Counted from the stretch's first letter, positions 1,687-62,428 are shown. The stretch is 64,000 nt of DNA from Dehalococcoidia bacterium (GCA_015661155.1 JACVQK010000004.1:9243-73242); one strand, 5' to 3'. Translations and numbers: made by a program. Notes: generated from the sequence alone by a model not told the origin.

Positions 1687-1890
1687 CTGAAAGACCCCTT
1701 CGACCATCCCCCTGTCCCCCTTCCTAGCCAGGAAGGGGGGAAAGCAGGGCGAGCCCTGCACCCACACTCAACTGTTGCTGTGCTGGTCTGACCATGTTCT
1801 ACGGTTCGTAAGGTGTGGGTCTGGGCCGTGCCCAGTGGGGGACACTCCCAGACCCCCGGCATCCCGATACGTCGGGACTACACTCCCCCT
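1687..1890 (+). repeat. Family A composite intergenic repeat, copy A1 (modules M1+M2+M3)
   Basis: It shares long near-identical blocks with 26085..26290 (inverted), 48931..49088 and other copies. It lies between the grdE stop and the grdB start. Confidence 0.9.
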
Positions 1891-1904
1891 TTTTCATCAG
1901 CCTT

Positions 1905-3170
1905 CTAATAGACGGTGATGCTGACCTTGGATGCGCCCTGGGCATTGGCAACTCCGCAGACCCGGGAGGCCGAGACCTCCCGCAGGGTGGCCAGGGCCTC
2001 TGCCGCCTCGGGGGTCCCCGCGAAAACCCGCTCAGGCCGCCCCACCGCCCATTTTATGCCGTTCCCGCCCACGTGTACGATAGCATCTACCTCCGGGTAG
2101 TTGAACAGGAGAGCCGACTCGGCCTGGCTGTCCCCGGCCGAACCCGTCACCGCGACGACGGTGCGCATTCCCATGGTCTCGCAGAGGCGGGCCGTCAGAC
2201 CCATGTCGGCATGGGGGGCACCGCCGCCGTATTTTGTCAGGAGCACCACGTCCGCTCCCAGGGTCCATTTGGCCAGGTGGGCCGCGACCATGCAGTTGCG
2301 GTCCCGCTCCTCCTCCAGGGACGCGGCGACGGTGGCGATGGAGCCAACGAAGGTGAGCTCGCCAGCCTGGTGCCGCCGGTAAAGCTCAAGGATGACGGGA
2401 TGGTTTTGATAGAAGTAGGTCTCTTCGTTGTGGTTGTTCCAGTAGGAGAGGACCACGGCTCCATCCAACCACTCGTTGGGATGCAGGGGTACGGGGATCA
2501 TCCCCTGGGTGTTGCTTCCGTATAGGATGTGCTCGTCTGCCTCACCCCCGTGCTGGTGGCCGTGGATTTGGCCGATGAAGGCGGCGCGCAGCAGCCCCTC
2601 TCGGCCCCCAACCTGGGGCCCTTCCAGATCGAAGACCTCAATCGTCGCGGGAACCCGCCGCACGGCGGCGCGCGCCAGATAGACGGAAGCCGTGACCGAT
2701 GCCAGTCTCAGCGCGTTCTGGAACGCGTGCCGTGGCAGGCCAGGGACGCCGTGGGGGATGATGACCAGGTGATGCAGGGCACCGTAGGGCGTGGCGGCAC
2801 CCGCCTCACCCCCCATCTCCAGGAGCTTGCCCCCCGCTCTGGGAAGACCCTCGTCGAGGACCGTGACCGCGGAGCCCCGGAGGACGTGGGTTGTCCCCTG
2901 CCCAGCCAGCACATAGGGGCCCAGAATGCCGGGAAAGTCCGCTCCGGAGCCCGGCTCCTTGGCACGAGGTTCGAGGATGTCGAAGATGTCGCCCACTCTG
3001 GAGGACTCCCCGGGGCAGACCGTCTCCAGGTCCACGCTCTGGAGGCGCCGATCCTTCAGAAGCAGCTGGCGCAGCTCCTCCCTGTCCACCTGGAGCCTGG
3101 TCCCGTCCAGTCGCGTGGCGTCAGCAAATTCGAGACCCGTAACCGGGTGAAGGGCGAGGGTCAGACGCAT
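1905..3170 (-). CDS. grdE: Glycine/sarcosine/betaine reductase component B alpha/beta proprotein (GrdE/GrdG/GrdI family)
   Basis: 421 aa. It sits directly upstream of grdB, as in grd operons. ATG 3170 is preceded by GGGAGGGAG. Family assignment rests on overall resemblance and context. Confidence 0.75.
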   Translation of the reverse strand: MRLTLALHPVTGLEFADATRLDGTRLQVDREELRQLLLKDRRLQSVDLETVCPGESSRVGDIFDILEPRAKEPGSGADFPGILGPYVLAGQGTTHVLRGSAVTVLDEGLPRAGGKLLEMGGEAGAATPYGALHHLVIIPHGVPGLPRHAFQNALRLASVTASVYLARAAVRRVPATIEVFDLEGPQVGGREGLLRAAFIGQIHGHQHGGEADEHILYGSNTQGMIPVPLHPNEWLDGAVVLSYWNNHNEETYFYQNHPVILELYRRHQAGELTFVGSIATVAASLEEERDRNCMVAAHLAKWTLGADVVLLTKYGGGAPHADMGLTARLCETMGMRTVVAVTGSAGDSQAESALLFNYPEVDAIVHVGGNGIKWAVGRPERVFAGTPEAAEALATLREVSASRVCGVANAQGASKVSITVY

Positions 3171-3232
3171 GGCACTCCCTCCCTTGCGTAGGCTTCTTTT
3201 CGTATCGCTGCTGGTTGTTGGACCCTCTAAGG

Positions 3233-3262
3233 TTGACTAATTGTAGAAATGTTTGCTAGAAT
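3233..3262 (+). promoter_or_regulatory. Sigma70-like promoter candidate TTGACT-N18-TAGAAT for grdC-grdA, overlapping a near-palindrome (TTGACTAATT...AATTGTCAA)
   Basis: The hexamers are read directly in the 142-nt divergent grdE/grdC intergenic region. Confidence 0.4.
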
Positions 3263-3312
3263 TGTCAACGTGCGTCTGTAAACGACGATTTTCCTCACGA
3301 GGGATGTTCGCT

Positions 3313-4764: not shown

Positions 4765-4790
4765 ACACAAGACAGATACAGGAGAAAGCG

Positions 4791-5255: not shown

Positions 5256-5390
5256 CAGGCTGCGGTCTACGTGGAGCGCTTTGGGCGGAAGGATGGCATC
5301 CCCATGTGCCGGGACTGCACTCCCTGATGATATCCTTAACAGGGTAGCGCGACACTAGCATCTGGTTGAGGAGCGGGGCGTCACGATTCT

Positions 5391-5520
5391 CCGCTTGTGG
5401 TAAGCCTGTCGAAGCATGCGAGCGGAGGGAAACTCCCGCTCATGTCCTTCGACAAGCTCAGGATGAGCGGGAACTCAGGTTATGCCCTTCCTCCGCTCGT
5501 GGTGAGCCTGTCGAACCATG
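5391..5520. repeat. Family B palindromic REP-like element, three units (CCGCTYRTGGTRAGCCTGTCGAA / TTCGACAAGCTCAGGATGAGCGG)
   Basis: The same units recur at 13865..13920, 47945..48000 and 57485..57580. Confidence 0.85.
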
Positions 5521-5613
5521 ATTTACGCAAGTGAGCACTAGCGCCCATAAAAAAGCGAGGGTGCCCCACCGGTTAACGGGGGGCACCCTCGTCCCTTCTC
5601 CGCTGATGCCGGG

Positions 5614-7510
5614 CTATTTGGCCAGCCACGTCCTCTCGAAGACGGAGAGGGTCATCATCGCGGGGGTCGGCGTCAAGATATATCCCTTCAGGTCCGGCGT
5701 GGTGCCATTGAAGACCAGTATCCACCCCAGGGAGAGTTCGAAGGTCATCTCCTGGGTGAGCTTCTTCTCTATGGCCCGGACCATCGGAGCACGCTTCACC
5801 CGGTCCATCTCGCCGGTCTGCGCCTCTATCATCGCCTGAATCTCCGCCTGCAAGGCGGGCTCGGCCGCCGTCATCCCCTCCAACATGCATTTGTTGCTGG
5901 AGCTCAGTGGATAGAGCCAGCTGTATCTGAGAAGCCGGTCATCCGGGTCCCCTTGAGTTTCTTGCAGATTGACCCCCTGTACATTGAAGTTGCACACATC
6001 GATGTAGGTCGTCTGCACCGCTTGCTCAAGGGGCTGCATGGTTATCTCGATGCCCAGCTTCTTCTTCACCTGGTCCTTGAGGAAGAGGCAATAGTTCATG
6101 AAGTTCTGGCTGTTCCTCGATATGCAGGTGGTTTCGAACCGCTTCCCCTTTCCGAACACCTCATCCAGCAGCCGGTTCGCCTCCATGATGTCCTGGTCCT
6201 TGGGCTGCCGGTAGCCAGGCCACGTCCTCAGCTCATCCTCAGGAGTGCCCCACCAGAAGGAAGGATAAGGCTCCGTGAGACCCGTCAGCAACGCCCCCGA
6301 GCGACTCCCGTACATCTGGAACAGCTGCCAGTCGTTCCGGTCCAGGGCCAGGTGAATGGCCTGCCTCACCCGCCGGTCATTGAAAGGGACCCGGTTCAGG
6401 TTGAACCTTATTCCCGAGCCCCAGGTGTGCAAGCCCACGTGGACCGCTATCCGGTCAGGGAAGTCCCGCTCCGCCTGGGACACCTGCCCGGGCAGCAGAG
6501 CGGAGCTGGCACCGCCCAGCCAGTTGATCTGCCCCGTGGCCAGGGCCGTGAACCGGGTGGTGAAGTCCTTGAGGATGTACGAGTCGATACCGTCCAAAAG
6601 CGGCAGTCCCTCCCGGAAGTAGCTGGGGTTCCGCCGGGTCTTTGTTACAACGTCGGGCTGGAACTCCAGAGGCGCAAAGGCCCCCGTGCCTGTATGAAAC
6701 CTGAAGCTCACGGGCGTACCCGTGCCCATCTCATCGAAGTGGTTGGCAACGTACCACTCTATCCACCCCTTGTCCAGCATGGGCACCGAGTAGAATACCC
6801 CCAGGGTCCTGGCCAGCACCTGGTTAAAGCTCACCACCGCGGTGTACCCCTTGGCTCCATCGGGGCAGGAGACGCCGGTGACGTGCTGCAGAGTGGCTCT
6901 CGGGACGCGCTTCGGCTCCGGCGGGCGCACATCGTACTCAACGCACCCCCTCCTCCAGCTTGAAGGTCAGGCTCAGGCCGTCGCTGGAGAGGGCCCAACT
7001 CTTGGCCAGGTCCCCGACCAGCGCTCCTGTCCCTGCCCACGGGTCATACCGCACCAGCGCGTTGTAGAGAGGGGGGACCATGGTTTCGTTGTTGGAGCTA
7101 GTAGTAACCGCCCGAAAGGTCGGTAAGGGGTTTGGCAACCCCGCCTTCATTATCCCGCCCCGCTTGGGCTCTCCCCACGCCGGCTTGTACCCCGGGAGCT
7201 GGGTGAGGGTGGCGGCAGACTGCCTGGGCGTGGCCGTGGGCGCTGCCGTGGCCGTGACCGTGGGCACTGCTGTAGCCGTGGGCACCAAGGTAGCCGTGGG
7301 CGTGGGCGCTCCCGGCACCAGGGTGGCCGTGGCCGTGGGCACCAAGGTGGCCGTGGGCACAGTGGTGGCCGTGGCCGCGGGAGCAAGGGTGGCCGTGGGC
7401 GGCGAGGTGGGCGTCGCCTTCTCGCCCGCGCACGCCAGGCCTACCCCCAGCATGGCCATTACGAGTACTGTCAGAACCTGCCCGTGACGCGCCGATATAC
7501 GCACACTCAC
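5614..7510 (-). pseudogene. ABC transporter substrate-binding lipoprotein, family 5 (peptide/nickel type), split by a 1-nt frameshift
   Basis: ORF 6938..7510 carries a signal peptide with Cys, a T/P/A-rich linker and ...GDLAKSWALSSDGLSLTFKLEEGV. ORF 5614..6930 carries the rest of an SBP_bac_5-like protein (HTGTGAFAPLEF...RNPSYF...). The frames differ by one nt at a C5 run (6946..6950). Removing one base gives a continuous ORF. Confidence 0.75.
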
Positions 7511-13765: not shown

Positions 13766-13864
13766 CGTCTGTGAACATTATATCAGGAAGAGGAAGGCTG
13801 CGGAGTTACCGCGCCACAGCAGGGTCTTCTGATTGTTTTAGTTTAAGGATCGACCACGCTCGTA

Positions 13865-13920
13865 CCCTTCGACAGGCTCGCCATGAGCGGTTCTGCTTCC
13901 CGCTCATGGCGAGCCTGTCG
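13865..13920. repeat. Family B REP-like hairpin (perfect 21-bp stem CGACAGGCTCGCCATGAGCGG)
   Basis: The inverted repeat is read directly. Confidence 0.85.
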
Positions 13921-26031: not shown

Positions 26032-26084
26032 GGGGTATTCCCCAAATCCACAGATTGCCAGTACCTGCTGTCGCGTGAATGAAA

Positions 26085-26290
26085 AAGGGGGAGTCCAGAG
26101 GGAGCGAAGCCCCTTCTGGCGGGGGTCTGGGGGTGTCCCCCAGACTGGGCTTAGCCCAGACCCACATCTCACGAACCTAGAATATGGTCAGACCAGTGCA
26201 GCGACAGTTGAGTGTGGGTGCAGGGCGTGCCCTGCCCCTTCCTGGCCAGGAAGGGGGCTAGGGGAATGGTCGAAAGAGTTTTTCAGCACC
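26085..26290 (-). repeat. Family A composite repeat, copy A2 (M3-M2-M1 as read on the + strand; the only copy inverted relative to the others)
   Basis: It is the reverse complement of copy A1 block by block. It lies between the + strand moaD-like and xdhC genes. Confidence 0.9.
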
Positions 26291-26370
26291 CTGCTAGGAG
26301 AGCCGAATCGCTTGCTGTGTGCTAGAATTACACGCTAGTCTACATTGAGTCTGGTGAGAGGGAAACCACC

Positions 26371-34242: not shown

Positions 34243-34306
34243 AAGAAGGGGCCGCCCCCTCTGGGAGCGGCCCCTTGCCCTTGCTGCCCGGGTTCCTAGT
34301 AGGTCG

Positions 34307-34428
34307 CTGGAAAACCCTTTCGACCATCCCCCTGTCCCCCTTCCTGGTCAGGAAGGGGGGAGAATTTGCATCTGGGGGACACCCCCAGACCCCCGTCAAA
34401 GGGGCTGCGCCCCTCTGCACTCCCCCTC
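34307..34428 (+). repeat. Family A repeat, copy A3 (M1+M3, no M2)
   Basis: Near-identical to 58233..58353. It directly follows the groEL stop on the minus strand. Confidence 0.9.
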
Positions 34429-34441
34429 TTTCAGCAGCCTC

Positions 34442-36052
34442 CTAGTAGTCCATGGGAGGCATAGAAGGCGTGCTCTTCGCCTCTGGGATGTCCGTTATCA
34501 GGGACTCGGTGGTGAGAATCATGGTAGCCACGCTGGCAGCATTCTCCACCGCTGCCCGGGTTACCTTGGCCGGGTCAATGATACCCCGCTGCATGAGGTG
34601 TCCGTACTCCTCGGCATCGGCATCAAAGCCCCAATCGCCCTTTCCCTTCCGCACCGCGTCCAGGACCACGGACCCCTCATGGCCGGAGTTCTCGGCGATG
34701 AGCCGGAGGGGTGTCTCCATGGCCTTCTGCATGATCCGCACCCCGGTTGCCTCATCCCCCCCTCGGGTCTGTATGTTCTTGAGGGCCTCTATGGCCCTCA
34801 CCAGGGCCACACCACCCCCGGGTACAATCCCCTCCTCCACCGCGGCCCGGGTTGCAGAGAGGGCGTCCTCTACCCTGCTCTTCTTCTCCTTCATCTCCAC
34901 CTCAGTGGCGGCTCCCACCTTGATGATGGCCACGCCCCCAGCCAGCTTGGCCTGCCGCTCCTGAAGCTTTTCCTTATCGTAGTCGGAGGTGCTCTCCTCA
35001 ATCTGGCTTCTGATGGACTTGATACGGGCCTCGATAGCCTTCTCGGAGCCCATTCCTCCCACGATGGTGGTCTCCTCTTTGGAGGCAACCACTCGGCGCG
35101 CCCGACCCAGGTCCTCCACGGTAACCGAGTCCAGCTTGCGGCCCACCTCTTCACCGATAACAGTGGCACCGGTGAGGATGGCCATGTCCTCTATCATGGC
35201 CTTGCGTCGGTCGCCGAAGCCGGGCGCCTTCACTGCCAGGGGGCTCAGAGTACCCCTCAGCTTGTTTACCACCAGGGTGGCCAGGGCCTCCCCCTCCACC
35301 TCCTCGGCAATGACCACAATGCTCTTGGTTACCCCCAGGGCCTTCTCCAGAGCGGGAAGGATATCCGAAACTGAGGAAATCTTCTTGTCGGTGATGAGGA
35401 TGTAGGGGTTCTCTATCACCGCCTCCATCCGGTCTGGGTTGGTGATGAAGTAGGGGCTGATGTACCCTCTATCGAACTGCATCCCCTCCACAAACTCCTT
35501 CTCGTACTGGAGGCCCTTGGACTCCTCCACGGTGATGACCCCGTCCTTGCCCACCTTCTCCATCACCTCCGCGATGAGCTCTCCGATCGCGTGCTCATGG
35601 GCGGAGAGGGATGCCACCTGGGCTATCTGCTCCCTCCCCTGGACGGGAGTCGCCATTCTCTTGATCTCCTCTTTTATGGCCACCACCGCCTTCTCAATGC
35701 CCCGCTTGAGGGCCATGGGGTCCGCCCCCGCGGCGACGTTCTTGAAACCCTCCTGGACAATGGTCTGGGCCAGCACCGTGGCTGTGGTGGTCCCGTCTCC
35801 AGCCATGTCGTTGGTCTTGCTGGCCGCTTCCTTCAGGAGCTGGGCGCCCATGTTCTCAAAGGGGTCCTTCAGATCGATCTCCTTGGCTATGGTCACGCCA
35901 TCGCTGCACACCGAAGGGGGACCGAACGCCTTGTCCAGGATAACGCTGCGCCCCCTGGGGCCCAGGGTCACCCTGACGCTGGAGGCAACCTGATCCACCC
36001 CACTCTTTAAAGCCTTCCTGGCGTCCTCACCGAAACACAGTTGCTTTGGCAT
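34442..36052 (-). CDS. groL: Chaperonin GroEL
   Basis: ..[12 protein letters not shown].. and the C-terminal ..PSMPPMDY, 536 aa. Confidence 0.97.
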
Positions 36053-41171: not shown

Positions 41172-41275
41172 GCAGGGCGAGCCCTGCACCCACACTCTTC
41201 AGACGCATTCATGGGCAGGCTGAACTCAGGGTCTGTGATATGTGGATCTGGGCTAAGCCCAGTGGGGGACACCCC
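41172..41275 (+). repeat. Family A repeat, copy A4 (M2 subtype b plus partial M3)
   Basis: Closest to 52680..52833. Confidence 0.85.
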
Positions 41276-41436
41276 TTTTCCCGCAGCCTGCTATAGCTCA
41301 ACCCTTACAACTACTGGCCTTGAAGCTCTCGGACATAGTATACCAGCATACCCAGCTCCTCGTCCAACATGAGCTTCTTGAAGGTGGGCATGGCGGAGGG
41401 TGACTCAACGACTGCCAGGAGTTGCACTCCACCCGC

Positions 41437-44950: not shown

Positions 44951-44960
44951 CTCTAAGTCT

Positions 44961-45027
44961 CCCTCCCCTCCCCCGCCTCCTGCTGTAGCTGGTACAGCCG
45001 GTTGATGGCCTCCAGGGGGGTCATGGA
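44961..45027. repeat. Direct repeat copy A of the mutS 3' end (67 bp, 1 mismatch)
   Basis: CCCTCCCCTCCCC(G/T)GCCTCCTGCTGTAGCTGGTACAGCCGGTTGATGGCCTCCAGGGGGGTCATGGA is present at 44961..45027 and 45271..45337. Confidence 0.95.
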
Positions 45028-45265: not shown

Positions 45266-47812
45266 CTACTCCCTCCCCTCCCCTGCCTCCTGCTGTAGCT
45301 GGTACAGCCGGTTGATGGCCTCCAGGGGGGTCATGGAGGAGACGTCCATCTCCAGCAGGGCTTCTATCACCGGGTGAGGGAGGGTGAACAGGGGGCGCTG
45401 CCGGGGAGCCGACGGCACGCCCTCTCCCTCCAGCTCGGAGAGGAGCTCCCAGGCCCGTGCTATCACCGAGGGCGGCAGGCCCGCAAGCTGCGCCACGTGG
45501 ACGCCGTAGCTCTTGTCGGCCCCTCCCGGCACAATGCGGTGCAGGAACACCACCCGGCCCTCGCTCTCCACCGCGGCCACGCTGAAGTTGCGCACCCTGG
45601 GAAGGGCCTGAGCGAGCTTGGTCAGCTCGTGGTAGTGGGTGGCGAAGAGGGTCTTGCACCCCAGCCTGGGGCTGTTGTGGATGTATTCGGCAGTCGCCCT
45701 GGCGATGGCCAGGCCGTCGTAGGTGCTGGTACCGCGGCCTATCTCGTCCAGGACCACCAGGGAACGCGGCGTGGCGTGGTGCAGGATGTTGGCCGTCTCC
45801 ACCATCTCCACCATGAAGGTGGACTGGCCGGTGAACAGGTCGTCCTGGAGACCGATACGGGTGAAGACCCGATCCACCAGGCCGATGGTGGCGGAGCGGG
45901 CGGGGACGAAGCTCCCTATCTGGGCCATGAGGACGATGAGGGCCACCTGCCGTATGTAGGTGGACTTGCCGGACATGTTGGGGCCCGTGAGGAGGATGAG
46001 CTGGGAGTCCCCGCTGCTCAATAGGGTGTCATTGGGCACAAAGGAGCCTGGGGGCAAGGTTCTCTCCACCACCGGATGCCTTCCCTCTTGGATTTCGATG
46101 GTATCCCCATTGGTGAGACGGGGCCGCACATAGCCGTAGCGGGATGCCCCCTCCGCCAGGGCGGCAAAGACGTCCAGGTGGGCCACGGCGGCGCCAGCGG
46201 AGGCGATGGAACGCCCCGCGTCGGCTATCTGGCGGCACACCTGGCGGAAGAGCGTGCCCTCCAGCTCCTCCGTGCGCTCCTGGGCGTTGAGCAGGATGGA
46301 CTCGTACTCCTTCAGCTCCGGGGTGATGAATCGCTCCCCGCCCACCAGGGTCTGGCGGCGGGTGTAGTCTGGAGGGACCTGCGGGAGGTTGGGATTGCTG
46401 ACCTCGATGTAGTAGCCAAAAACCCGGTTGTAGCCCACCTTGAGGGAGCGAATGCCCGTGCGCTCCTTCTCTCTACGCTCCAGGCCGGCTATGTACTCTC
46501 GACCGCTTCGAGACTTGGCCCTGAGGCCATCCAGCTCCGGGGAGAAGCCCTGCCGGATGACTCCCCCCTCACCCACACTTGCCAGGGGAGAGTCCTCCAG
46601 GGCACTCTCCACCAGCCCGACCACGGCGTCGCACGGGTCCAGGCCCTCTCCCAGCCAGGAGGGGTATCCCTGAGCGCCCTCCACCAGGGCCCTGAGGCGT
46701 CCTACCCCTACCAGTCCCCCCCGGAGGGATATCACCTCCCTGGGGATGGCGGCTCCTGAGGCGATGCGGTTCAGCAGCCTCTCCAGGTCAGGGATAGATT
46801 TGAGGGTGGAGATAATCTCCTCCCGGCGAATCTGGTCTGTGAAGAGGGCCTCCACCGCCTCCTGACGACGCTCCAACTGGGCCAGGTCCAGAAGGGGCTG
46901 TCCCAGCCATCTCTTGAGCAGTCGACCCCCCATGGGGGTGCTGGTAAGGTCCAGGGTAGCCAGAAGGGAGTGGGAGGCGCTACCCCACCTACCTCCCTGG
47001 AACAGCTCCAGATTTCGGCGGGTCTGATGGTCCAGGAACATGAAGGCCCTGGGCGAGTAGGTGTGGAGTCCCGTGAGGCGCTCCAGGGCCTGTTTTTGGG
47101 TTTTGCGCAGGTATGCCACCACGGCTGCCGACGCCTCTATAGCCAGGGGCATCCCCTGGCAGCCATACGCCTCCAGGGTGGCGACGCCGAAGTGCTCCCG
47201 CAGAATCTCCTCCGCCTCCCTGGGGCGGAACAGCGTCTCCTCCAGGGGAGTGACGAAGGGCGCTGAAAGGGAGGAGGGGAGGGGACAGTCGTGAGGATAG
47301 AGCACCTCCGAGGGGCTGAGCCGTGCCAGCTCCAAGGGCAGGTCCGCGAGGGGAATCTGGGTGGTGGCGAACTCGCTGGTAGTTATGTCAACATACGCCA
47401 GGCCCGCCTCCTCCCCTCGCGCCACCACCGCGGCCAGGTAGTTGTTGGAGCCCTGGGCCAGGAGAGAGGGCTCCGTCACCGTGCCGGGGGTCACCACCCG
47501 CACCACCTGCCGCTCCACCAGGCCCCTGGGAGATGGCTCCCCCATCTGCTCGCAGATGGCCACCCGGTAGCCCTTCTTGACCAGACGGGCCAGATAGCTG
47601 TCCAGGGCGTGATACGGTATCCCCGCCAGGGGAATGCTCTGGCCTTTCCCCATCTCCCGGGACGTAAGGACTATCTCCAGCTCCCGAGCGGCTATCCGAG
47701 CATCATCGTCGAAGGTCTCGTAGAAGTCCCCCATGCGGAAGAGAAGGATGGCATCGGGGTGCTCCTGCTTGAGCTTCAAGTATTGCTGCCGGATAGGAGT
47801 CAGGAAGGCCAT
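45266..47812 (-). CDS. mutS: DNA mismatch repair protein MutS
   Basis: ..MGDFYETF.., Walker A GPNMSGKST, ..DEIGRGTSTYDG.., 848 aa. Confidence 0.97.
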   Translation of the reverse strand: MAFLTPIRQQYLKLKQEHPDAILLFRMGDFYETFDDDARIAARELEIVLTSREMGKGQSIPLAGIPYHALDSYLARLVKKGYRVAICEQMGEPSPRGLVERQVVRVVTPGTVTEPSLLAQGSNNYLAAVVARGEEAGLAYVDITTSEFATTQIPLADLPLELARLSPSEVLYPHDCPLPSSLSAPFVTPLEETLFRPREAEEILREHFGVATLEAYGCQGMPLAIEASAAVVAYLRKTQKQALERLTGLHTYSPRAFMFLDHQTRRNLELFQGGRWGSASHSLLATLDLTSTPMGGRLLKRWLGQPLLDLAQLERRQEAVEALFTDQIRREEIISTLKSIPDLERLLNRIASGAAIPREVISLRGGLVGVGRLRALVEGAQGYPSWLGEGLDPCDAVVGLVESALEDSPLASVGEGGVIRQGFSPELDGLRAKSRSGREYIAGLERREKERTGIRSLKVGYNRVFGYYIEVSNPNLPQVPPDYTRRQTLVGGERFITPELKEYESILLNAQERTEELEGTLFRQVCRQIADAGRSIASAGAAVAHLDVFAALAEGASRYGYVRPRLTNGDTIEIQEGRHPVVERTLPPGSFVPNDTLLSSGDSQLILLTGPNMSGKSTYIRQVALIVLMAQIGSFVPARSATIGLVDRVFTRIGLQDDLFTGQSTFMVEMVETANILHHATPRSLVVLDEIGRGTSTYDGLAIARATAEYIHNSPRLGCKTLFATHYHELTKLAQALPRVRNFSVAAVESEGRVVFLHRIVPGGADKSYGVHVAQLAGLPPSVIARAWELLSELEGEGVPSAPRQRPLFTLPHPVIEALLEMDVSSMTPLEAINRLYQLQQEAGEGRE
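45271..45337. repeat. Direct repeat copy B (the functional mutS 3' end)
   Basis: See copy A. It encodes the mutS C-terminus MTPLEAINRLYQLQQEAGEGRE. Confidence 0.95.
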
Positions 47813-47944
47813 GCTTTAAGTCCGTCCTGTAGCCAGGGGTACGGTGCAATTCTACAGGACGCTGAGCACCCTGGCAAAGGCAGATCAGGTACAACGAATT
47901 CCAGGGACTCTCTGCTACTTGAGCTCAGACCGACCCCGCTCACG

Positions 47945-48069
47945 CCCTTCGACAGGCTCAGGGTGAGCAGTATTTATCTCCCCGCTCATGGTGAGCCTAG
48001 TTTACCCTGAGCGAGGCCGAAGGGAACCATATGAGCAGAAGCGTAGGGGCGATTCATGAATCGCCCCTA
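47945..48069. repeat. Family B REP-like hairpin plus two further GC-rich hairpin motifs (CCCTGAGCGAGGCCGAAGGG; TAGGGGCGATTCATGAATCGCCCCTA)
   Basis: The inverted repeats are read directly upstream of mutS. Confidence 0.8.
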
Positions 48070-48103
48070 AAGCGGGCTAGCATTTGGGCCTGTTAGTGGG
48101 GTG

Positions 48104-48156
48104 CTGAAAAACCCTTTCGACCAACCCCCTAGCCCCCTTCCTGTCCAGGAAGGGGG
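48104..48156 (+). repeat. Family A repeat, copy A5a (M1 alone)
   Basis: GAAAAACCCTTTCGACCAACCCCCTAGCCCCCTTCCTGTCCAGGAAGGGGG. Confidence 0.85.
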
Positions 48157-48930: not shown

Positions 48931-49088
48931 GCAGGGCGTGCCCTGCACCCACACTCAACTGTTGCCGCGCCGGTCTGACCGTCCTTCAGATGAAGGACGG
49001 CTCGTAAGGTGTGGGTCTGGGCCTGGCCCAGTCTGGGAGACACCCCCAGAACCCCACCAATCCCAATGAATCGGGACTGGACTCCTCT
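48931..49088 (+). repeat. Family A repeat, copy A5b (M2 subtype a plus M3 variant)
   Basis: Closest to 1744..1890. Confidence 0.9.
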
Positions 49089-49192
49089 TCTTCAGGACAC
49101 TCTTTCGATGCACGGAGGCGTAGAGGCAATCCCATCCCTTGACGGAGGCGCGGAGCAACTCACCCTGAACCCAAGTCTCCAGGATGCGGCCG

Positions 49193-52679: not shown

Positions 52680-52833
52680 AAGGGCGTATACCTCATCGCC
52701 CTGCACCCACACTCCTCAGAGGCATCCATAGGCAAGCCCAATTCAGGGTCTGTGAGATGTGGGTCTGGGCCATGCCCAGTGGGGGACACCCCCAGACCCC
52801 CGCCAAAGGGGCTGCGCCCCTCTGCACTCCCCC
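52680..52833 (+). repeat. Family A repeat, copy A6 (M2 subtype b plus M3)
   Basis: Block identity to 41172..41275 and to the M3 of 34375..34428. Confidence 0.9.
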
Positions 52834-52848
52834 TGCTTCACCGGCCTG

Positions 52849-55683
52849 CTAGACGGCTTTCTCCAGCCGCACGGGTAACACCTTCAACCCAGGCACCCGT
52901 GAGAAGGGGTCTGGGTCTTCGCTGCTCTCCAGGCGACTGGCCAGCCCGCCGAAGAGGAGGGTCGCGGACACCGCGCCGCGAAGGGCCCTCTCCGTGAGCT
53001 GAGCCCGAAGCCGCATCCGCGTCCCGGGTGAAATCACCTCCACCCAGTCCCCATCTCCGATGCCCAGGTCGGCGGCGTCCGAGGGGTGAATCTCCAGAAG
53101 CTCGTCCCGCCCGATGTAGCTCTTGTGGCCTGCCACCTGAATCTCCGCCCCTCTATGGGGCTGGTGAAGCACCCGCCCGGGGAGGAGAAGGAGGGGGTAC
53201 TCAACGGTCGTCGGAATGGGGACATCCCTCACCTCCAGAGGAGCCAGCCTGGCCTTTCCTCTGGGGAAGCCCCCGGCGTACAGAATGGGGGTGTCCCCAC
53301 TCTCCTGGGAGGTGCAGGGCCACTGAAGGCTCGCTCTCTGCCCCCCCTGGGCGGGGTAAAGCTGGCTGGGAATGGGGAAGTTGGGCCACGACATCGGCTC
53401 CAGCAAGCCCCTCTGGGAGAGGAGCCGCGGATAGGAGACGCCCGCGTAGAGGGGAACCAGGCGGGATATCTCCTCCATCACCTGGGACGGGGAGGCGTAG
53501 TCGAAGCCCTGGGCGCTCATGGCCCTGGCTATCTGGCACACTATCCACCAATCGGGCCGGGCCTGGGTGCTCTTCACCTCCAGGACTTTCCGCAGGGGCT
53601 GAACCCGCCGCTCCAGGTTCGTGTAGGTGCCCTCCTTCTCGGCGAAACTGACCGAGGGCAGCACCACGTCAGCAACCTGGGCCAACCCGGTGAGGAAGGC
53701 ATCCTGCACCACCAGGAACTCCAGCTTCTGGGCCGCCTCCAGCACATCCCCCAGCTCGCCGTTGGAGAAGCCGGGGCTATCGCCCACCACCAGCATGGCT
53801 TTCACGCGCCCCGAAGAGGCGGCCTCAAAGACCTCCCTGACCCCAAGTCCCTTGCTCTGGGGCAACTCCACCCCCCAGGCCCCCTGGAAGGCGGCGCGAG
53901 CCGCGGGGTCAGCCACCCCCTGGTAGCCTGGCAGCAGGTGAGGTACGCACCCCACGTCCCAGGAGCCCTGGTCGTTGGTGCCAGGACGCAGGGGATAGAG
54001 TCCCGTGTGGGGCTTGCCCACGTTGCCCGTCAGAAGGGCCATGTCCGCCAGGGCGCGCACGCACTCCTCCCGGTGGGAGGCAGGAACGTTGTCCAGGGCG
54101 TAGAGGATAGCGGCGGGGCCATTCTGGGCAAAGGTCCGGGCGGCCAGGCGTATCTCCTCCTGGGACACCCCTGTCATCTCCTCCACCCTGTTGAGGTCGA
54201 AGTGCCACAGGGAGTGTTTGAGGGTATTCAGGTTATCACACCGCTCCCTTAGAAAGGCCGTGTCCTCCATCACCTCGTCCACCATGGCCCTGAGCATTCC
54301 CCCCAGCAGGATGGAGTCGGTCCCGGGCCGGGGCCGTATCCACACCGTAGCGTAGCGGGTCAGCTCCACCTCCCGGGAGTCGATGACGATGAGCTTGGCC
54401 CCTTTCTTCACCGCCCGCTTCACGGGCACCGCCACCACGTTGTGGTCTTCGGTGGTGTTGGTTCCTATGGCCAGGATGCACCGGGCGTCCTCCAGCTCCC
54501 AGATGGTGTTGGTGGCCGCCGCATACCCCAGGACATCCCTCAGGGGCTCCGCTATCTCCGGTCGGAGGTTGGAGGAGTGGTCCACGTTGTTGGTTCCCAT
54601 CACGGAGCGGGCGAACTTCTGCAACAGGTAGCTCTCCTCGTTGGTTCCGCGGTAGGAGGCGATGGCGGCGAACTGGTCGCCCTTGTACCCGGAAAGCCTC
54701 TCCGCCACCAGGGAGAGGGCCTCCTCCCAGGAAGCCTCCTCCAGGGAGCCGTTTCGCCTCACCAGGGGAGCCTTGAGCCGCTCCCGGCTGTTGACGAAGC
54801 CGAGGCCGAACTTCCCCTTGAAACAGGCCTGTCCCCGGTTGGCACCGGCCTCCAGCTGGGGGATGGCGCGGATGACCCTGCCTCGCTGGCTCACCTCCAG
54901 CTTCAGCTGGCACCCCACAGGGCAGTGGGGACAGGTGGTGGATACGCGCTCCACCGCCTTCTCCCACTTGTGCTCCCGCTCCACCAGTGCTCCCACGGGG
55001 CAGACGTCGATGCAGGCCCCGCAGAACTCGCACCCCGACTCCAGCAGCGAGGATCCTCCGGCGGGGCCCACCAGAGAGAGCCCCCCTCTCTCCCTGAATC
55101 CCATGGCGCTGTCCCCCCGGACCTCTTCACAGACCCTCACGCACCGTCCGCACACTATGCACAGGTTCATATCCAGGTCGTAGAAGGGGTCTTTGTTCTC
55201 CACAGGGAGGTTACGGTATCTGTAGGTTAGAGGGGTGGTGAGGCCCATGCCCACGTAGCGGGTGGTGTCCTTCAGCTCGCACCGCTCGTTCTTGGGGCAG
55301 ACGACACACCGGTCGGTGACGGAGACGTGGCGCAGGCATATGTCCTGGGGGCCGCACAGCTCGACGCGGTGGCAGGTGAGGCAGCCGTGGGGATGCTCCG
55401 AGATGACCAGCTCCACGATGCCTTTGCGCAGCTCCTGGAGCTGGGGAGTGTTGGTCCACACCACCATGCCATCGGCCACGGGGGTGGTGCAGGAAGCGGG
55501 CGTCCCCCTGGTCTTCTCTATCTCCACCACGCACATCCTACAAGCGCCATAGGGCTTCATGCCGGGGGAGTAGCACAGATAGGGAATGTACAGCCCAGAC
55601 TCCGTGGCCACCTGGAGGATGGTCTTTCCGGGCTGATCCCTCACCTCCCTACCATCGATGAACAGGGTCAGGTCAGCGGCCAC
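52849..55683 (-). CDS. NuoG/FdhA-like Fe-S plus molybdopterin-domain subunit (NAD-linked formate dehydrogenase alpha-related)
   Basis: N-terminal 2Fe-2S/4Fe-4S cysteine clusters (..CYSPGMKPYGACRMC.., ..CIVCGRCVRVC.., ..CPHCPVGC..) followed by a molybdopterin oxidoreductase domain. GTG 55683 follows GGAGGAG and lies right after the nuoF-like stop. Confidence 0.8.
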   Translation of the reverse strand: MAADLTLFIDGREVRDQPGKTILQVATESGLYIPYLCYSPGMKPYGACRMCVVEIEKTRGTPASCTTPVADGMVVWTNTPQLQELRKGIVELVISEHPHGCLTCHRVELCGPQDICLRHVSVTDRCVVCPKNERCELKDTTRYVGMGLTTPLTYRYRNLPVENKDPFYDLDMNLCIVCGRCVRVCEEVRGDSAMGFRERGGLSLVGPAGGSSLLESGCEFCGACIDVCPVGALVEREHKWEKAVERVSTTCPHCPVGCQLKLEVSQRGRVIRAIPQLEAGANRGQACFKGKFGLGFVNSRERLKAPLVRRNGSLEEASWEEALSLVAERLSGYKGDQFAAIASYRGTNEESYLLQKFARSVMGTNNVDHSSNLRPEIAEPLRDVLGYAAATNTIWELEDARCILAIGTNTTEDHNVVAVPVKRAVKKGAKLIVIDSREVELTRYATVWIRPRPGTDSILLGGMLRAMVDEVMEDTAFLRERCDNLNTLKHSLWHFDLNRVEEMTGVSQEEIRLAARTFAQNGPAAILYALDNVPASHREECVRALADMALLTGNVGKPHTGLYPLRPGTNDQGSWDVGCVPHLLPGYQGVADPAARAAFQGAWGVELPQSKGLGVREVFEAASSGRVKAMLVVGDSPGFSNGELGDVLEAAQKLEFLVVQDAFLTGLAQVADVVLPSVSFAEKEGTYTNLERRVQPLRKVLEVKSTQARPDWWIVCQIARAMSAQGFDYASPSQVMEEISRLVPLYAGVSYPRLLSQRGLLEPMSWPNFPIPSQLYPAQGGQRASLQWPCTSQESGDTPILYAGGFPRGKARLAPLEVRDVPIPTTVEYPLLLLPGRVLHQPHRGAEIQVAGHKSYIGRDELLEIHPSDAADLGIGDGDWVEVISPGTRMRLRAQLTERALRGAVSATLLFGGLASRLESSEDPDPFSRVPGLKVLPVRLEKAV

Positions 55684-55691
55684 GCTCCTCC

Positions 55692-57437: not shown

Positions 57438-57484
57438 ACACTCCTCCGCAATAACCCGCTTCTCCTTCGGCAGGCTCTGAGCGA

Positions 57485-57580
57485 CCCTTCGACAAGCTCA
57501 GGGTGAACGGAATATATCTACCCGCTCATGGTGAGCCTGATGTATCTACCCGCTCGTGGTTCGGCAAGCTCACCACGAGC
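57485..57580. repeat. Family B REP-like hairpins lying between the nuoE-like and nuoF-like genes
   Basis: CCCTTCGACAAGCTCAGGGTGAACGG...CCGCTCATGGTGAGCCTG and GCTCGTGGT...ACCACGAGC. Confidence 0.85.
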
Positions 57581-57585
57581 ACGAC

Positions 57586-58110: not shown

Positions 58111-58232
58111 CGTGATTTTTCTAATTAGCCGATGGTATCACAAGTGGCCCCGGCCTTCAACAGACATCTTGGTGGCCTTTTAGGCATCCATACAGGAGGC
58201 CGTGATAGTGCATAGCAAACGTAGTAGGGTGT

Positions 58233-58353
58233 TGAAAAACCCTTTCGACCATCCCCCTGGCCCCCTTCCTGGCCAGGAAGGGGGAGAAATTCGAATCTGG
58301 GGGACACCCCCAGACCCCCGCCAGAAGGGGCTTTGCCCCCTCTGGACTCCCCC
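58233..58353 (+). repeat. Family A repeat, copy A7 (M1+M3)
   Basis: Near-identical to 34307..34428. Confidence 0.9.
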
Positions 58354-58488
58354 AGAGTCACTTTCGGGGACCAGTTCGGAAGGAGACCGTGATAGCGCAC
58401 AGCCAACCTGGTAGAATAGTGGACACCCTGAACCTCAAGCTCCCCAGAGGAACAGGAAGACGTCTGCAAGGAGGATTCACAACCAGTC

Positions 58489-58647
58489 ATGGGAAGACCC
58501 ACTTGGTACGCTGAGCACCCTCCGGCATGTACCTGTGTTAGCTGCCAGGAGAAGCAGACCATAAGCCGGCACCACGGCAAGATTGGTCGAAACGAGAAGT
58601 GTCCCTGTGGAAGCGGCAAGAAGTACAAGAAATGCCACGGGCAGTGA
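58489..58647 (+). CDS. Small SEC-C motif ([14 protein letters not shown]) metal-binding protein, 52 aa; not in the ORF track
   Basis: Translates as [60 protein letters not shown] lies about 13 nt upstream. Confidence 0.55.
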
Positions 58648-58687
58648 ACTGCACGACGGCCGTAGTCCCGCCGGCATGGGTGCGCTT

Positions 58688-58771
58688 GTAGGGTGGGTGA
58701 GGTGAAACGAAACCCACCCCAAAGATTCCAGTTTGGGTAGGGCGGGTTTCGCTACGCTATACCCACCCTAC
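58688..58771. repeat. Two adjacent GTAGGGYGGGT...ACCCACCC(TAC) hairpins
   Basis: The inverted repeats are read at 58688..58720 and 58737..58771. Confidence 0.7.
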
Positions 58772-58795
58772 AACTCCTGCTCTGGCGGATGCGCC

Positions 58796-59443: not shown

Positions 59444-59449
59444 GCTATA

Positions 59450-60049: not shown

Positions 60050-60232
60050 GGACTTCCTCCAGAACGCATCTATATTGGCTCCATTATAGAACCACTGTCA
60101 CGCGGTGTCAACTTGACGTCGGCTGTCGGTGCTGAGCGTGCTGAGCCTCTGTGGACACTACTCGAACCTTCTGCGGCCGGTATTGCTGCCAAGGTTAAGG
60201 CGGTTACTCGAATGAATAAGGGAGCGTCAGCG

Positions 60233-60264
60233 TTGACAAACTGTACACTTACCTGTACAGTTTG
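60233..60264 (+). promoter_or_regulatory. Promoter TTGACA-N17-TACAGT overlapped by a perfect 11-bp inverted repeat CAAACTGTACA-N6-TGTACAGTTTG (candidate TA operator)
   Basis: The hexamers lie at 60233..60238 and 60256..60261. The palindrome spans 60237..60264. The relE-like ATG is 10 nt after the -10 element. Confidence 0.6.
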
Positions 60265-60270
60265 TGGTTG

Positions 60271-60585
60271 ATGGTCTACCGGATCGAAATCACCCCGACG
60301 GCCCTAGAAATGCTGGAAGCCATCACTGACCGGCGTACTCAATCTGCCATCGTGCGGCGCATCAATGGGTTGGCCCAGGAGCCCCAGATGCAGGGGAAAG
60401 CCCTCCGAGGTGAGCTGGCGGGCTTCCTGAGCATCCGGGCAGCCGGGCAGCGGTATCGAGTGGTATATCGAGTTGAAGAGCAAAACGAGCGGGTCATCGT
60501 GTACCTGGTGGGTATCCGAAAGGAGGGCAGCCGACAGGACGTGTACGCGTTGGCCCAGCGGCTCGTGCGACGGGGATTACTGTAG
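60271..60585 (+). CDS. relE: RelE/ParE-family toxin
   Basis: MVYRIEITPTALEMLEAI..GKALRGELAGFLSIRAAGQRYRVVYRVEEQNERVIVYLVGIRKEG. Confidence 0.8.
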   Translation: MVYRIEITPTALEMLEAITDRRTQSAIVRRINGLAQEPQMQGKALRGELAGFLSIRAAGQRYRVVYRVEEQNERVIVYLVGIRKEGSRQDVYALAQRLVRRGLL

Positions 60586-60598
60586 GAGGGAAGGGTAG

Positions 60599-60883
60599 AT
60601 GGAAGCTCCAAGGGAAACAGAAGAGATCACCATAGTGGATGCTCGGCGGCTTCTAACGAAGCTACCGGAACGGCTGGGGAGTCACCCTGCAACCGTGGCG
60701 GTCACACGACGGGGGAAGCCCGTTCTGGCCATCATGGCCTGGGAGGACTATGAGGCTATCCTGGAGACCCTGGAGATCCTCAGCGATGAGGAAGCGGTCG
60801 AGAAACTGCGCCGCAGCATCCAGGAAGTCAGGGAGAGCAAGACCATCCCCTGGGAAGAGGCCAAGACCCGCCTCGCCAGGTAG
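60599..60883 (+). CDS. Phd/YefM-family antitoxin
   Basis: ..VAVTRRGKPVLAIMAWEDYEAILETLEILSD... The ATG follows GGAGGGAAGGG, 13 nt after the relE stop. Confidence 0.75.
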   Translation: MEAPRETEEITIVDARRLLTKLPERLGSHPATVAVTRRGKPVLAIMAWEDYEAILETLEILSDEEAVEKLRRSIQEVRESKTIPWEEAKTRLAR

Positions 60884-60979
60884 ACCCAGGGACATAGTGG
60901 TAGCTTAGTTGTGCGCTGGGTTACGTCTTGGAAAGCTGGTGGACCGTCGTGGCTTCGAATCCCACGCACACTTTACACC

Positions 60980-62308
60980 TCACCCCAAGTCCTCCATCAT
61001 CATGCCCGCCAGGCGCTTGCCCATGCGGACGCTGTAGCTGGTGCCCCGATCTTCGGGGTAAATCTGGGTGGTGTTGGCCAGGTAGAGGCCCTTGACGGGC
61101 GTCCGGTGGTCGGGGATGTGCTGGGAGTAGTTGGCACCAGCTATGGGCTGGGCCGCCTCCACCCTGTGGTAGTACCACTCCTCGATCCAGGAAGGGTCGA
61201 AGCGGGGGTTGACCTTCTTCAGATGGGGGATGTACTCCTCCAGGAGTTGGCTGTCCTTCATGTGAAAGAGGGGGCTGTCCTCCCCCAGGTAGTTGGAGAT
61301 GTACAGGATGTGCTTTCCGCCGTAGTGGGAGGACTCGATGTAGTTGGTGTGCTCAATGAGGCCCACAAAGGGAATGGAGCGGTCGGCGATGTTGAGCCAG
61401 TAGAGGCGGGACAAGGGCTCCTTGAGCACCAGGACCATGAGGACCGCGGCCAGGTACTTGACCCCCTGGAGCTTCTCCAGATAGTCCTGGGGCAGCCCTG
61501 AAACCAGGCGGGGCAGCACGTAGGACGGCGTGGTGGCCAGAACGGCGTCGAAGGGCCGAAGGATTGTACTCCCCCAGGCAGACCGCGCCTCCAGGCCCGT
61601 GGCCCGTCCCTCCTCCACGGTGATGGCCCGCACCGGCGTTGAGAGGTTCACCTCCCCTCCCCTCTCCACGATGCGCTCCGCCAGGGTCTCGAACACCTCC
61701 GCGAAACTCCCCATGGGATAGCCCAGCCTCTCCTTCTGCATGCCCTTGCCCCGGGAGGCAAAACGGGTGTGTATCTTTCCCCAGAACCAGGGCATGCCCA
61801 CCTTATCGTAGTAGGCCCCGAACTTCCCCCTCAGCAGGGGCCCCCACACCACGTCGTATGCCCCCTTGCCGGCGTACTTCCGAATCCACTCGGCAGCGGT
61901 GAAACGCTCCAGCTTCTGCCACTCCTTGTACCGCTGGAGATAGAGAATCGCCAGTCCCATCCGAAGGCGGTCCACCGGACTCAGGGGCGTGAAGCGCAGG
62001 AGGTCCGTGGGAGAAACGAAGTTGTAGATTTTACCGCCGTGGAAGATGCCCACCTTGGATTCGATCCACGCCAGCTTGGGGCCCAGGCCCAGCTCGTGAA
62101 TCAGGTCCACCATATCCCGGTCGCTGGTGAACAGGTGGTGATACCCCTTCTCCAACCGGGCGCCTCCCACGTCGAAGGTGGAGGCTTGCCCCCCCACAAA
62201 GGGGTCTCCTTCATACACCGTCGCCTCATGCCCAGCCTTGACCAGGGTGTAGGCCGCAGCCAGGCCCGTGGCCCCCGCCCCGATAATGCCTACCTTCATT
62301 GGACTCAT
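60980..62308 (-). CDS. FAD/NAD(P)-dependent amine-oxidase/phytoene-desaturase-like oxidoreductase
   Basis: MKVGIIGAGATGLAAAYTL..VYEGDPFVGGQ dinucleotide-binding motif. ATG 62308 was chosen. Confidence 0.75.
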   Translation of the reverse strand: MSPMKVGIIGAGATGLAAAYTLVKAGHEATVYEGDPFVGGQASTFDVGGARLEKGYHHLFTSDRDMVDLIHELGLGPKLAWIESKVGIFHGGKIYNFVSPTDLLRFTPLSPVDRLRMGLAILYLQRYKEWQKLERFTAAEWIRKYAGKGAYDVVWGPLLRGKFGAYYDKVGMPWFWGKIHTRFASRGKGMQKERLGYPMGSFAEVFETLAERIVERGGEVNLSTPVRAITVEEGRATGLEARSAWGSTILRPFDAVLATTPSYVLPRLVSGLPQDYLEKLQGVKYLAAVLMVLVLKEPLSRLYWLNIADRSIPFVGLIEHTNYIESSHYGGKHILYISNYLGEDSPLFHMKDSQLLEEYIPHLKKVNPRFDPSWIEEWYYHRVEAAQPIAGANYSQHIPDHRTPVKGLYLANTTQIYPEDRGTSYSVRMGKRLAGMMMEDLG

Positions 62309-62310
62309 TG

Positions 62311-62428
62311 CAAAACCCTCACCCCCTGTGTCCCCCTCTCCCTTGCGAAGGGAGAGGGGGAAGAAAACCCCGTTGGGGGACACCCCCAAACCCCCGCCAG
62401 AGGGGGCACAGCCCCTCTGGACTCCCCC
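62311..62428 (+). repeat. Family A repeat, copy A8 (M1 variant with a CCCCCTCTCCCTTGCGAAGGGAGAGGGGG hairpin, plus M3)
   Basis: M3 is near-identical to the other copies. It abuts the oxidoreductase start codon. Confidence 0.85.

Follow-up and report, generated by a model that had tools for sequence, protein, structure and literature searches.

The 64,000-nucleotide stretch of a Dehalococcoidia bacterium genome analysed here (GCA_015661155.1, JACVQK010000004.1:9243-73242; hereafter the window) carries nine copies of a short, GC-rich intergenic repeat, numbered 1 to 9 by position. These repeats are likely to constitute a family of non-autonomous DNA transposons, or MITEs (miniature transposable elements with inverted repeats), which insert at TA, are widespread in Chloroflexota, are mobilised by a transposase of the IS630/Tc1 type and owe their preferred orientation to a survival filter. 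In an earlier note on the window they had been described as combinations of three hairpin modules (M1, M2 and M3) that would fit a transcribed, structured RNA element better than a MITE. This contrast proved to be misplaced, as the elements possess inverted termini flanked by TA, the earlier note having itself named terminal inverted repeats with target-site duplications as speaking against its RNA reading, and two orthologous sites in related genomes are empty. Along with these inverted termini, the size of the elements, their dispersal (nine copies of 60-230 nt in 64 kb) and their presence/absence polymorphism are those of bacterial MITEs, as is the absence of coding capacity, the open reading frames (ORFs) that run through the elements being all spurious.

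A complete element is ~85-230 bp long and consists, in order, of TA, the terminus GCAGGSTGCTGAAAAA, a hairpin H1 (M1), an optional block of three hairpins (M2), a core hairpin, a hairpin H3, the opposite terminus and again TA; M3 comprises the near-invariant core hairpin TGGGGGACACCCCCAGACCCCCG followed by the variable H3. Complete copies read TA-GCAGGSTGCTGAAAAA ... TTTTTCAGCASCCTGC-TA, and in the orientation of the earlier note the outer context is YTA-GCAGGSTGCTGAAAAAC... at the start and ...TTTTTCAGCASCCTGC-TAR at the end. The inverted termini of complete copies are 16-25 nt long and 79-94% complementary, and a repeat finder applied to the ends of complete copies from four different metagenome-assembled genomes (MAGs) returned 18 nt at 94% (L089), 20 nt at 90% (L057), 19 nt (L059) and 25 nt (L102). 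The consensus GCAGGSTGCTGAAAAA is accompanied by the variants GAGACYGCTGAAAWAG in a low-GC subfamily and GARGCTRTTCGGGAAA in a subfamily with a different M1 (M1b). The modules are interchangeable or insertable blocks within one terminus-defined element. Of 11 complete high-GC copies, 7 are flanked by TA at both ends, and TA precedes 38 of 93 terminus-like ends, as against a frequency of 2.45% among the dinucleotides of the window. The bases just outside the TA are Y and R, mostly giving C-TA-G, and CTAG is under-represented 3.7-fold in the window.

Comparison with relatives in which the corresponding spacers are short and devoid of the element identifies copies 1 and 3 as insertions. Copy 3 (34297..34444, - strand; M1+M3, 144 nt at 34299-34442, TA on both sides and both termini present) lies between the convergent genes for an LPG-synthase-like protein (+) and groEL (-), directly after the groEL stop codon as noted earlier, where it is inserted at the TA of the groEL TAG and regenerates the stop codon. 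In the closest relative retrieved (L126, an ENA contig), with 85% GroEL identity and the same groES-groEL/LPG-synthase arrangement, the gap between groEL and the neighbouring gene is 58 nt and the element is absent. The empty site reads ...GGATTAC TAG GAACACGG..., leading straight into a conserved terminator hairpin, whereas the filled site reads ...GGACTAC TAG, the inserted stretch (GAGGCTGCTGAAAG ... 144 nt ... TTTTCCAGCGACCTAC TAG) and GAACCCGGG..., followed by the same terminator; one C-TA-G is therefore present in the empty site and two in the filled one. A 2-bp duplication of TA is the most economical of the possible readings. The groEL intrinsic terminator (34246..34276, -; a 14-bp stem followed by a T-run), also conserved in L126, is located downstream of copy 3, and the element, lying between the stop codon and this terminator, must be transcribed as part of the groEL 3' untranslated region (UTR). 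At the second site, the grdE-grdB spacer measures 54-55 nt in L127/L128 (80% GrdE identity) and L129/L130 (74% GrdE identity) versus 257 nt in the window, where 227 nt are accounted for by copy 1 (1679..1907, -), a full-length M1+M2a+M3 element (1679-1905) with both inverted termini. For copies 4-8, a metagenome scan for syntenic empty sites with the GltD-like protein gave only relatives of <=46% identity.

Insertion at stop codons is a recurrent feature of the family. At copies 1, 3 and 7 the flanking TA together with the terminal G of the element forms the TAG stop of the upstream gene; in copy 1 the TA concerned (1906-1907) closes the grdE-like gene, and the opposite end of the element lies 35 nt upstream of the grdB start (1643). 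In the window together with the related loci, ORFs of 100 codons or more are closed by nine TA-flanked ends, and an M3 copy directly follows the rho gene in L011. Since both termini begin with G, a stop codon is regenerated in either landing orientation. Most simply read, this means that a high-GC genome offers few tolerated TA/CTAG sites, stop codons being among them.

The orientation of the elements is related to that of the neighbouring genes, less strictly than was at first supposed. The earlier note held that every copy fits the direction of its flanking genes; the convergent context of copy 3 and the divergent context of copy 8 make these two uninformative, and in all the seven informative copies the G-rich strand is the mRNA-sense strand. 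Copy 8 (58222..58376, -; M1+M3 with TA and M1-side terminus, the M3-side end being variant and decayed) lies between the nuoE-like gene (-) and a small ORF at 58489-58647 (+), and it is the + strand position of the latter that makes the context divergent rather than co-directional. This ORF encodes 52 amino acids with a C-terminal SEC-C motif (Pfam PF02810, E 1.2e-10) and falls below the usual ORF length cut-offs. Copy 2 (26064..26296, +; full-length, M3+M2a+M1 on the + strand) is the sole copy with its G-rich strand on the + strand and is located in the only + strand gene block of the window, between the xdh small ORF and xdhC. This flip with the gene strand inside the window speaks for a link of orientation to transcription rather than to replication, and a replication-linked orientation was judged unlikely on the same ground.

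Outside the window, orientation was counted for M3 copies between co-directional genes, the strands of the flanking genes being assigned by our own codon-usage gene caller, which against 40 tool-called genes made no strand errors and no extra calls and missed 10 short genes. Sense and antisense copies numbered 45:11 among all the matches of the M3 covariance model (CM; p 5e-6), 29:8 after de-duplication per intergenic region with flanks of at least 150 amino acids, and 20:5 under stricter criteria, with p <=0.004 as the bound for all three criteria sets of the de-duplicated/strict count; a first pass with exact core matches and a looser flank rule gave 31:16. The correspondence with transcription thus stands for the 7 of 7 informative copies of the window and is not absolute outside it (~66-80%). 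The G-rich character of the sense strand shows in a (G-C)/(G+C) skew of +0.15 versus +0.03 in the flanking genes, and the C-rich strand adopts a three-way fold that GGGGGAG/CUCCCCC closes beside the U-run of the terminus. One Chloroflexota locus with the element also contains a rho gene. The orientation bias would most likely result from selection against polar insertions.

The conservation of the stems was analysed on 149 distinct M3 sequences with 500 shuffles. Standard pairs occupy 92% of the cells as against 47-60% when the partners are slid, 15 of the 18 M3 pairs have changed on both sides, and none of the 500 shuffles reaches the observed values; for one covarying pair (C-G to U-A), one side lies outside the pattern with which the loci were collected. 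The predicted preservation of the stems through compensatory change is, therefore, upheld, and the stems are conserved features of the family, covariation within a palindrome being silent on whether RNA or DNA is the selected form. The paired fraction is equal in sense (0.928, n=51) and antisense (0.924, n=13) copies and is the same in convergent and divergent contexts, which argues that the bias is a filter on insertion and not the outcome of RNA maintenance. The stems look like a part of the element's own design, with no evidence of local upkeep according to the direction of transcription. The mismatches in H3 are distributed with significant unevenness, 28 being such as would form G-U on the sense strand versus 6 on the other strand with a symmetric stem finder, and this excess could point to some constraint at the RNA level. 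It comes mostly from one recurrent position, the corresponding count in the H1 region (42 versus 31) is not significant, and the count of 78:34 in the CM alignment is obtained with a fitting procedure that leans to G-U by construction; the asymmetry was, therefore, not considered decisive as proof of RNA-level selection. Of the earlier description of a transcribed, structured RNA, the transcription of the groEL copy, the conserved stems and the strand bias stand, and an RNA function maintained in place is unsupported, the stems being equally intact in antisense copies.

It is unlikely that the repeats are primarily cis-acting RNAs (intercistronic or 3'-UTR stabilisers, processing sites or attenuators) kept by selection locus by locus, with mobility being incidental. 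Such RNAs would account for the sense bias (7 of 7 in the window and ~80% elsewhere), the position of copy 3 in the groEL 3' UTR, a core hairpin nearly invariant across the classes of Chloroflexota, the compensatory changes (15 of 18 pairs; 92% paired versus 47-60% slid) and the preponderance of sense-strand G-U among mismatches (28:6 in H3, 78:34 overall in the CM alignment). The closest relatives, however, lack the element at both the compared sites and have short, functional spacers there; inverted termini with TA flanks are hallmarks of transposons; the stems are no less intact in antisense, convergent and divergent settings; a single recurrent position accounts for most of the wobble asymmetry, which the H1 region lacks (42:31, not significant); the host genes are functionally unrelated; and compensatory changes in a palindrome may also arise via subfamily masters or template-switch correction. 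Nor does the element match Rfam: at gathering thresholds there were no matches, in agreement with the earlier remark that no named RNA family could be recognised, and at E<=1 the models (including Chloroflexi-1) gave only two unrelated sub-threshold matches. A related proposal, that M3 core and H3 (in the sense orientation GGGGGAGU-[stem]-CGGGGGUCUGGGGGUGUCCCCCAG) form a phylum-wide functional module which the transposon carries, with the ~80% sense orientation and the G-U-compatible mismatches reflecting positive selection, is speculative and rather doubtful; such a module might act in cis as RNA, for instance as a 3'-exonuclease barrier, a processing site or a G-rich protein- or ribosome-binding motif, or it might be a DNA site for a conserved host protein. 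Were it true, the MITE would be a vehicle that rewires mRNA stability or operon polarity across Chloroflexota, docking preferentially on stop codons.

Mobility as single-stranded DNA by an HUH/tyrosine transposase, as in the repetitive extragenic palindromes (REPs) and REPINs with their REP-associated tyrosine transposases (RAYTs) or in palindrome-associated transposable elements (PATEs) derived from IS200/IS605, would involve recognition of the hairpins and strand-specific insertion beside a short target word and could generate the bias through the direction of replication; we regard this as very unlikely. It would suit the hairpin-rich interior with its conserved stems, the existence of an orientation bias, the G-T-tolerant asymmetry on one strand of H3, a groEL junction that is also readable as an insertion after ...CTAC without duplication, and the tandem M3-like arrays of Dictyobacter (L065). 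Against it, REP and IS200/IS605 elements do not possess inverted termini of 16-25 nt that have TA at either flank, and orientation flips with the gene strand within 64 kb, so that a replication bias would need an origin or terminus in between. REPs are defined as imperfect palindromes of 20-40 nt that carry a conserved head, GTAG or CGTC, and are associated with a RAYT gene (PMC3733652). An identity with REP/REPIN was rejected as neither GTAG nor CGTC is a constant feature of the present termini (TAGCAGG...), the elements measure 85-230 nt and have inverted ends, and no Y1/HUH transposase gene was found in the window; an identity with PATEs, which have subterminal hairpins, lack inverted termini and a duplication, and insert strand-specifically beside a word of 4-5 nt, was rejected in view of the inverted termini, the symmetric TA flanks and the orientation that follows the local gene strand in the window. 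That the repeats are ordinary transcription terminators or chance GC-rich palindromes which only look alike is extremely improbable: GC-rich hairpins and T-runs in intergenic positions after genes do recall terminators, but the homology across copies spans 60-230 nt with E-values as low as 1e-50, most copies are located at operon junctions, within a few nucleotides of the following start codon, a consensus scan for intrinsic terminators flags no element on the sense strand, and the actual terminator of groEL is another hairpin, which lies downstream of copy 3.

The transposon reading would be explained by the following mechanism. A DDE transposase that works by cut-and-paste and is of the IS630/Tc1-mariner type would be encoded at another place in the genome, bind the termini in trans and insert the element at TA, mostly within CTAG, with duplication of the TA. 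As TA/CTAG is rare in a genome of ~62% GC and insertions within genes would be lost, the surviving copies would be those in short intergenic spacers, a sizeable fraction of them exactly on TAG stops, where the terminal G would regenerate the stop; the copies would then be co-transcribed with their neighbours. Insertion itself is probably orientation-neutral, and the predominance (~4:1) of copies that place their G-rich strand in the mRNA would stem from selection against the opposite orientation, in which a C-rich transcript with a closed multi-hairpin followed by a U-run may be polar by causing intrinsic or Rho-dependent termination. The stable hairpins would, in the tolerated orientation, be neutral or serve as 3'-end or intercistronic stabilisers. 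The CTAG target agrees with IS630, which prefers CTAG. A TA duplication is characteristic of the IS630/Tc1 family, where only ~24-30 bp of each terminus are needed in cis (PMC2170065), and bacterial MITEs with inverted termini, TA ends and orientation-dependent effects on mRNA have already been described (PMC2229807). Other intergenic repeats are known to stabilise upstream mRNA, an effect that in ERIC depends on orientation (PMC2229807, citing De Gregorio et al. 2005).

Several observations weigh against this account. Both termini are recognisable in only two of the nine window copies, and the TA flanks are less regular in the low-GC subfamily. The filled and empty groEL junctions have 9 nt (CTACTAGGA) in common, so that the breakpoints and the 2-bp duplication are consistent with the sequences and not uniquely determined by them, and TG stands in place of the second TA at the grdE insertion. 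That the disfavoured orientation would be polar is deduced from folding and composition only, and a simple terminator scan flags no elements. The G-U excess in H3 (28 versus 6) is a further such point. The window and ~0.85 Mb of related loci yielded no autonomous element whose termini match, and the IS630 assignment is a probable one whose sole ground is the TA/CTAG targeting. The genes scanned in the window include no transposase domain or RAYT gene, and in 130 loci no pair of termini encloses an ORF, whether pairs 420-4000 nt apart, relaxed pairs 700-2600 nt apart or ORFs bounded by inverted repeats were considered; the candidate partner ORFs proved to be the housekeeping genes for RlmN, an alcohol dehydrogenase, Rho and an MFS transporter. 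A literature search on Chloroflexi MITEs and REPs, the core motif, Dehalococcoidia MITEs and Chloroflexi IS630 returned no description of this family.

The distribution of the family was examined with an exact pattern for the M3 core in one genome per GTDB species. At least 110 stretches with the core were identified, nearly all in Chloroflexota, and the carriers among the matches listed include Dehalococcoidia, Anaerolineae, Chloroflexia, Herpetosiphonaceae and the isolate Dictyobacter aurantiacus; the M3 covariance model gave 154 matches in 100 sources. Many core matches are located at contig ends of Chloroflexota MAGs, and the core hairpin is nearly invariant across the classes of the phylum. 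Matches to the core in Streptomyces (L031, L056, L083, L106), with low scores and in coding or unrelated contexts, were treated as chance. MAGs of low-GC Dehalococcoidales carry a homologous 122-nt version with its parts in the same order (TA-GAGACTGCTGAAATAG, AACCCCCT..CCCCCAATCTTGGGGG, core, GCAGGAAGTATCCTGC, CTTTTTCAGCGGTCTC-TA). A third subfamily, to which copy 9 of the window belongs, has a different M1 hairpin and variant termini (CTAGARGCTRTTCGGGAAA), and a minimal form of ~85 nt lacks M1 (L023:276).

The M3 core was also observed in other settings. In several Dehalococcoidia MAGs (L009, L010, L013, L048, L049, L074, L077, L087, L097, L104, L109) another left module (CTTCCCACCCRCCCGCCC...) replaces M1 before the core, so that M3 is common to otherwise different elements. 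In the cultured Ktedonobacterium D. aurantiacus S27 (L065 4140-4485, NZ_BIFQ01000001.1), four M3-like units follow one another head-to-tail every ~90 nt, a fifth being located 1.4 kb from them, and M3 thus occurs there in tandem arrays rather than in single terminus-bounded elements. A second, unrelated short repeat family (CCTTCGACAGGCTCAGG..., CCCTTCGACAGGCTCAGGGTGAGC... / GCTCATGGTGAGCCTGTCGAAC), often in inverted pairs, is present in the window at 5391-5521, 13848-13891, 47928-47998 and 57485-57580 and is nested in the H1 or H3 loops of some element copies (L053, L012, L023, L061, L084); it may represent a separate, tiny insertable hairpin module.

Within the window, a self-BLAST with five copies as queries recovered exactly the nine loci reported earlier (E 1e-11 to 1e-120) and no further strong copy, and a repeat finder returned the same families; the M3 covariance model gives seven matches in the window (E 1e-11 to 1e-19), the next appearing only at E ~0.1. 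Much of the earlier description could be confirmed, namely the module combinations (M1+M2+M3, M1+M3, M2+M3 and M1 alone), the perfect 12+12 palindrome of M1 (CCCCCTTCCTGG/CCAGGAAGGGGG), the two internal subtypes of M2, which is a three-hairpin block, and the intergenic placement of all nine copies. The distances to downstream start codons are roughly as had been given, grdB being the case detailed above. The boundaries, in contrast, had been drawn ~10-20 nt too narrowly, since the elements run on into the terminal inverted repeats flanked by TA. Both termini are recognisable in copies 1 and 3 and one in copies 2, 4, 5 and 8, and copy 7 has a diverged terminus seen by eye. In copy 2 the M1-side terminus matches the consensus perfectly (TTTTTCAGCACCCTGC followed by TA, 26279-26296), and the M3-side terminus is degenerate, its boundary being approximate.

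The remaining copies are all on the - strand. Copy 4 (41172..41293), between mutL and ccmH, comprises M2b and a truncated M3 core joined straight to the M3-side terminus (TTTTCCCGCAGCCTGC followed by TA), with neither M1 nor a second terminus. Copy 5 (48094..48156), between the FNR-like gene and mutS, is a solo end consisting only of TA, the M1-side terminus and the M1 hairpin. Copy 6 (48931..49105), M2a with a degenerate M3 and decayed termini, lies between the gltD-like and FNR-like genes, with the FNR-like start ~13 nt downstream. Copy 7 (52680..52851) is M2b+M3 with the M3-side terminus, and its terminal TAG (52849-52851) serves as the stop codon of the FdhA/NuoG-like gene; the DUF35 gene is 165 nt downstream. 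Copy 9 (62297..62441) combines the different M1 hairpin (CCCCCTCTCCCTTGCGAAGGGAGAGGGGG) with M3; its termini are of the variant type and decayed, its boundaries are approximate, and its 3' end abuts or overlaps the start codon of the amine-oxidase gene. The gene names given earlier were confirmed by Pfam (grdB, grdE-like, xdh/xdhC, groEL, ccmH, mutL, mutS, FNR-like, gltD-like, DUF35, FdhA/NuoG-like, NuoF, NuoE and amine oxidase). The spurious peptides that had been pointed out are indeed present in the elements (WGTPPDPR four times, ECGCRARPA three times, GWSKGFFS once), as are false N-terminal extensions, the Pfam match beginning at residue 74 of the grdB ORF and at residue 60 of the ccmH ORF.

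A 33-nt imperfect direct repeat (AGGAGRCCGTGATAGYGCAYAGC...GTAG) stands on either side of copy 8 (58194-58226 and 58381-58413); it occurs nowhere else in the window and in none of the 130 loci, its length greatly exceeds that of a 2-bp duplication, and the copy on the right coincides in part with a promoter-like sequence, GTGATA-17-TAGAAT. A 34-nt inverted repeat with a 20-nt spacer (TTGTAGGGTGGGTGAGGTGAAACGAAACCCACCC / GGGCGGGTTTCGCTACGCTATACCCACCCTACAA, 58686-58773), situated between the SEC-C ORF and a metallo-beta-lactamase gene, does not belong to the MITE family. The grdB gene (363-1643, -) has an in-frame TGA at 606-608 followed by 80 further codons in frame to 363 (...VILTST*GTSTR...), which is what the selenocysteine codon in the gene for glycine reductase selenoprotein B would look like, and owing to this TGA the gene is split in the ORF list. 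A gene for a family-5 solute-binding protein (5614-7510, -) also appears split, into ORFs at 6938-7510 and 5614-6930, which could reflect a frameshift, a pseudogene or an assembly error; the upstream ORF has a signal-peptide-like start and a Thr/Ala/Pro-rich linker encoded by 18-33-nt periodic repeats at 7212-7414. A 69-nt direct repeat of 99% identity, with copies 310 nt apart at 44959-45027 and 45269-45337, one of which overlaps the 3' end of mutS (stop 45266), may be a recent local duplication of that end.

The elements cause false N-terminal extensions, spurious conserved "proteins" and contig breaks, and a family model would help clean the annotation across a large and mostly uncultured phylum. 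As miniature transposons that target TA/CTAG, they are a clear example from high-GC genomes, where the scarcity of TA funnels insertions to stop codons and operon junctions, and their ~4:1 orientation bias amounts to a natural experiment on the polarity of intergenic insertions. The presence of the element in the cultured D. aurantiacus S27 (L065) makes the questions at the RNA level directly testable.

Among the known systems, the elements form a new family of an already known kind, the bacterial MITE, to which they come nearest in function and structure, and are not a new RNA regulator. The Correia/NEMIS elements of Neisseria are likewise non-coding, ~100-155 bp long, with ~24-bp inverted termini and TA ends, vary in length by an internal module, are defined by filled and empty sites, and are gene-adjacent and co-transcribed into long-hairpin transcripts (PMC2229807). 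They belong to another phylum and bear no sequence similarity to the Chloroflexota element, which has several independent GC-rich hairpins in place of one long hairpin formed by the termini, a strong orientation bias and many stop-codon insertions; RNase III processing and IHF sites are documented for Correia. ERIC/IRU of the enterobacteria resembles it in being small, intergenic and co-transcribed, with inverted ends, TA termini and an orientation-dependent effect on mRNA stability (PMC2229807), and differs in its 7-bp inverted termini, its single long stem-loop and its unrelated sequence; the orientation-dependent effect is experimental in ERIC and deduced for the Chloroflexota element. The modular make-up recalls BOX of S. 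pneumoniae (boxA/B/C) and the BIMEs of E. coli (REP and linker motifs), combinatorial assemblies of short modules that are intergenic, transcribed and hairpin-rich; BIMEs are built from RAYT-mobilised REPs, and neither BOX nor BIME has TA-flanked inverted termini. The preference of IS630 for CTAG matches the C-TA-G flanks of the Chloroflexota element. IS630/Tc1-mariner transposons and their MITEs, such as RUP of S. pneumoniae and the ISY100 mini-transposons, insert at TA, duplicate it and need only their terminal inverted repeats of ~24-30 bp in cis (PMC2170065). The Chloroflexota element resembles them in its TA target and would probably share the other two properties; unlike in these systems, no cognate transposase gene with its termini was found.

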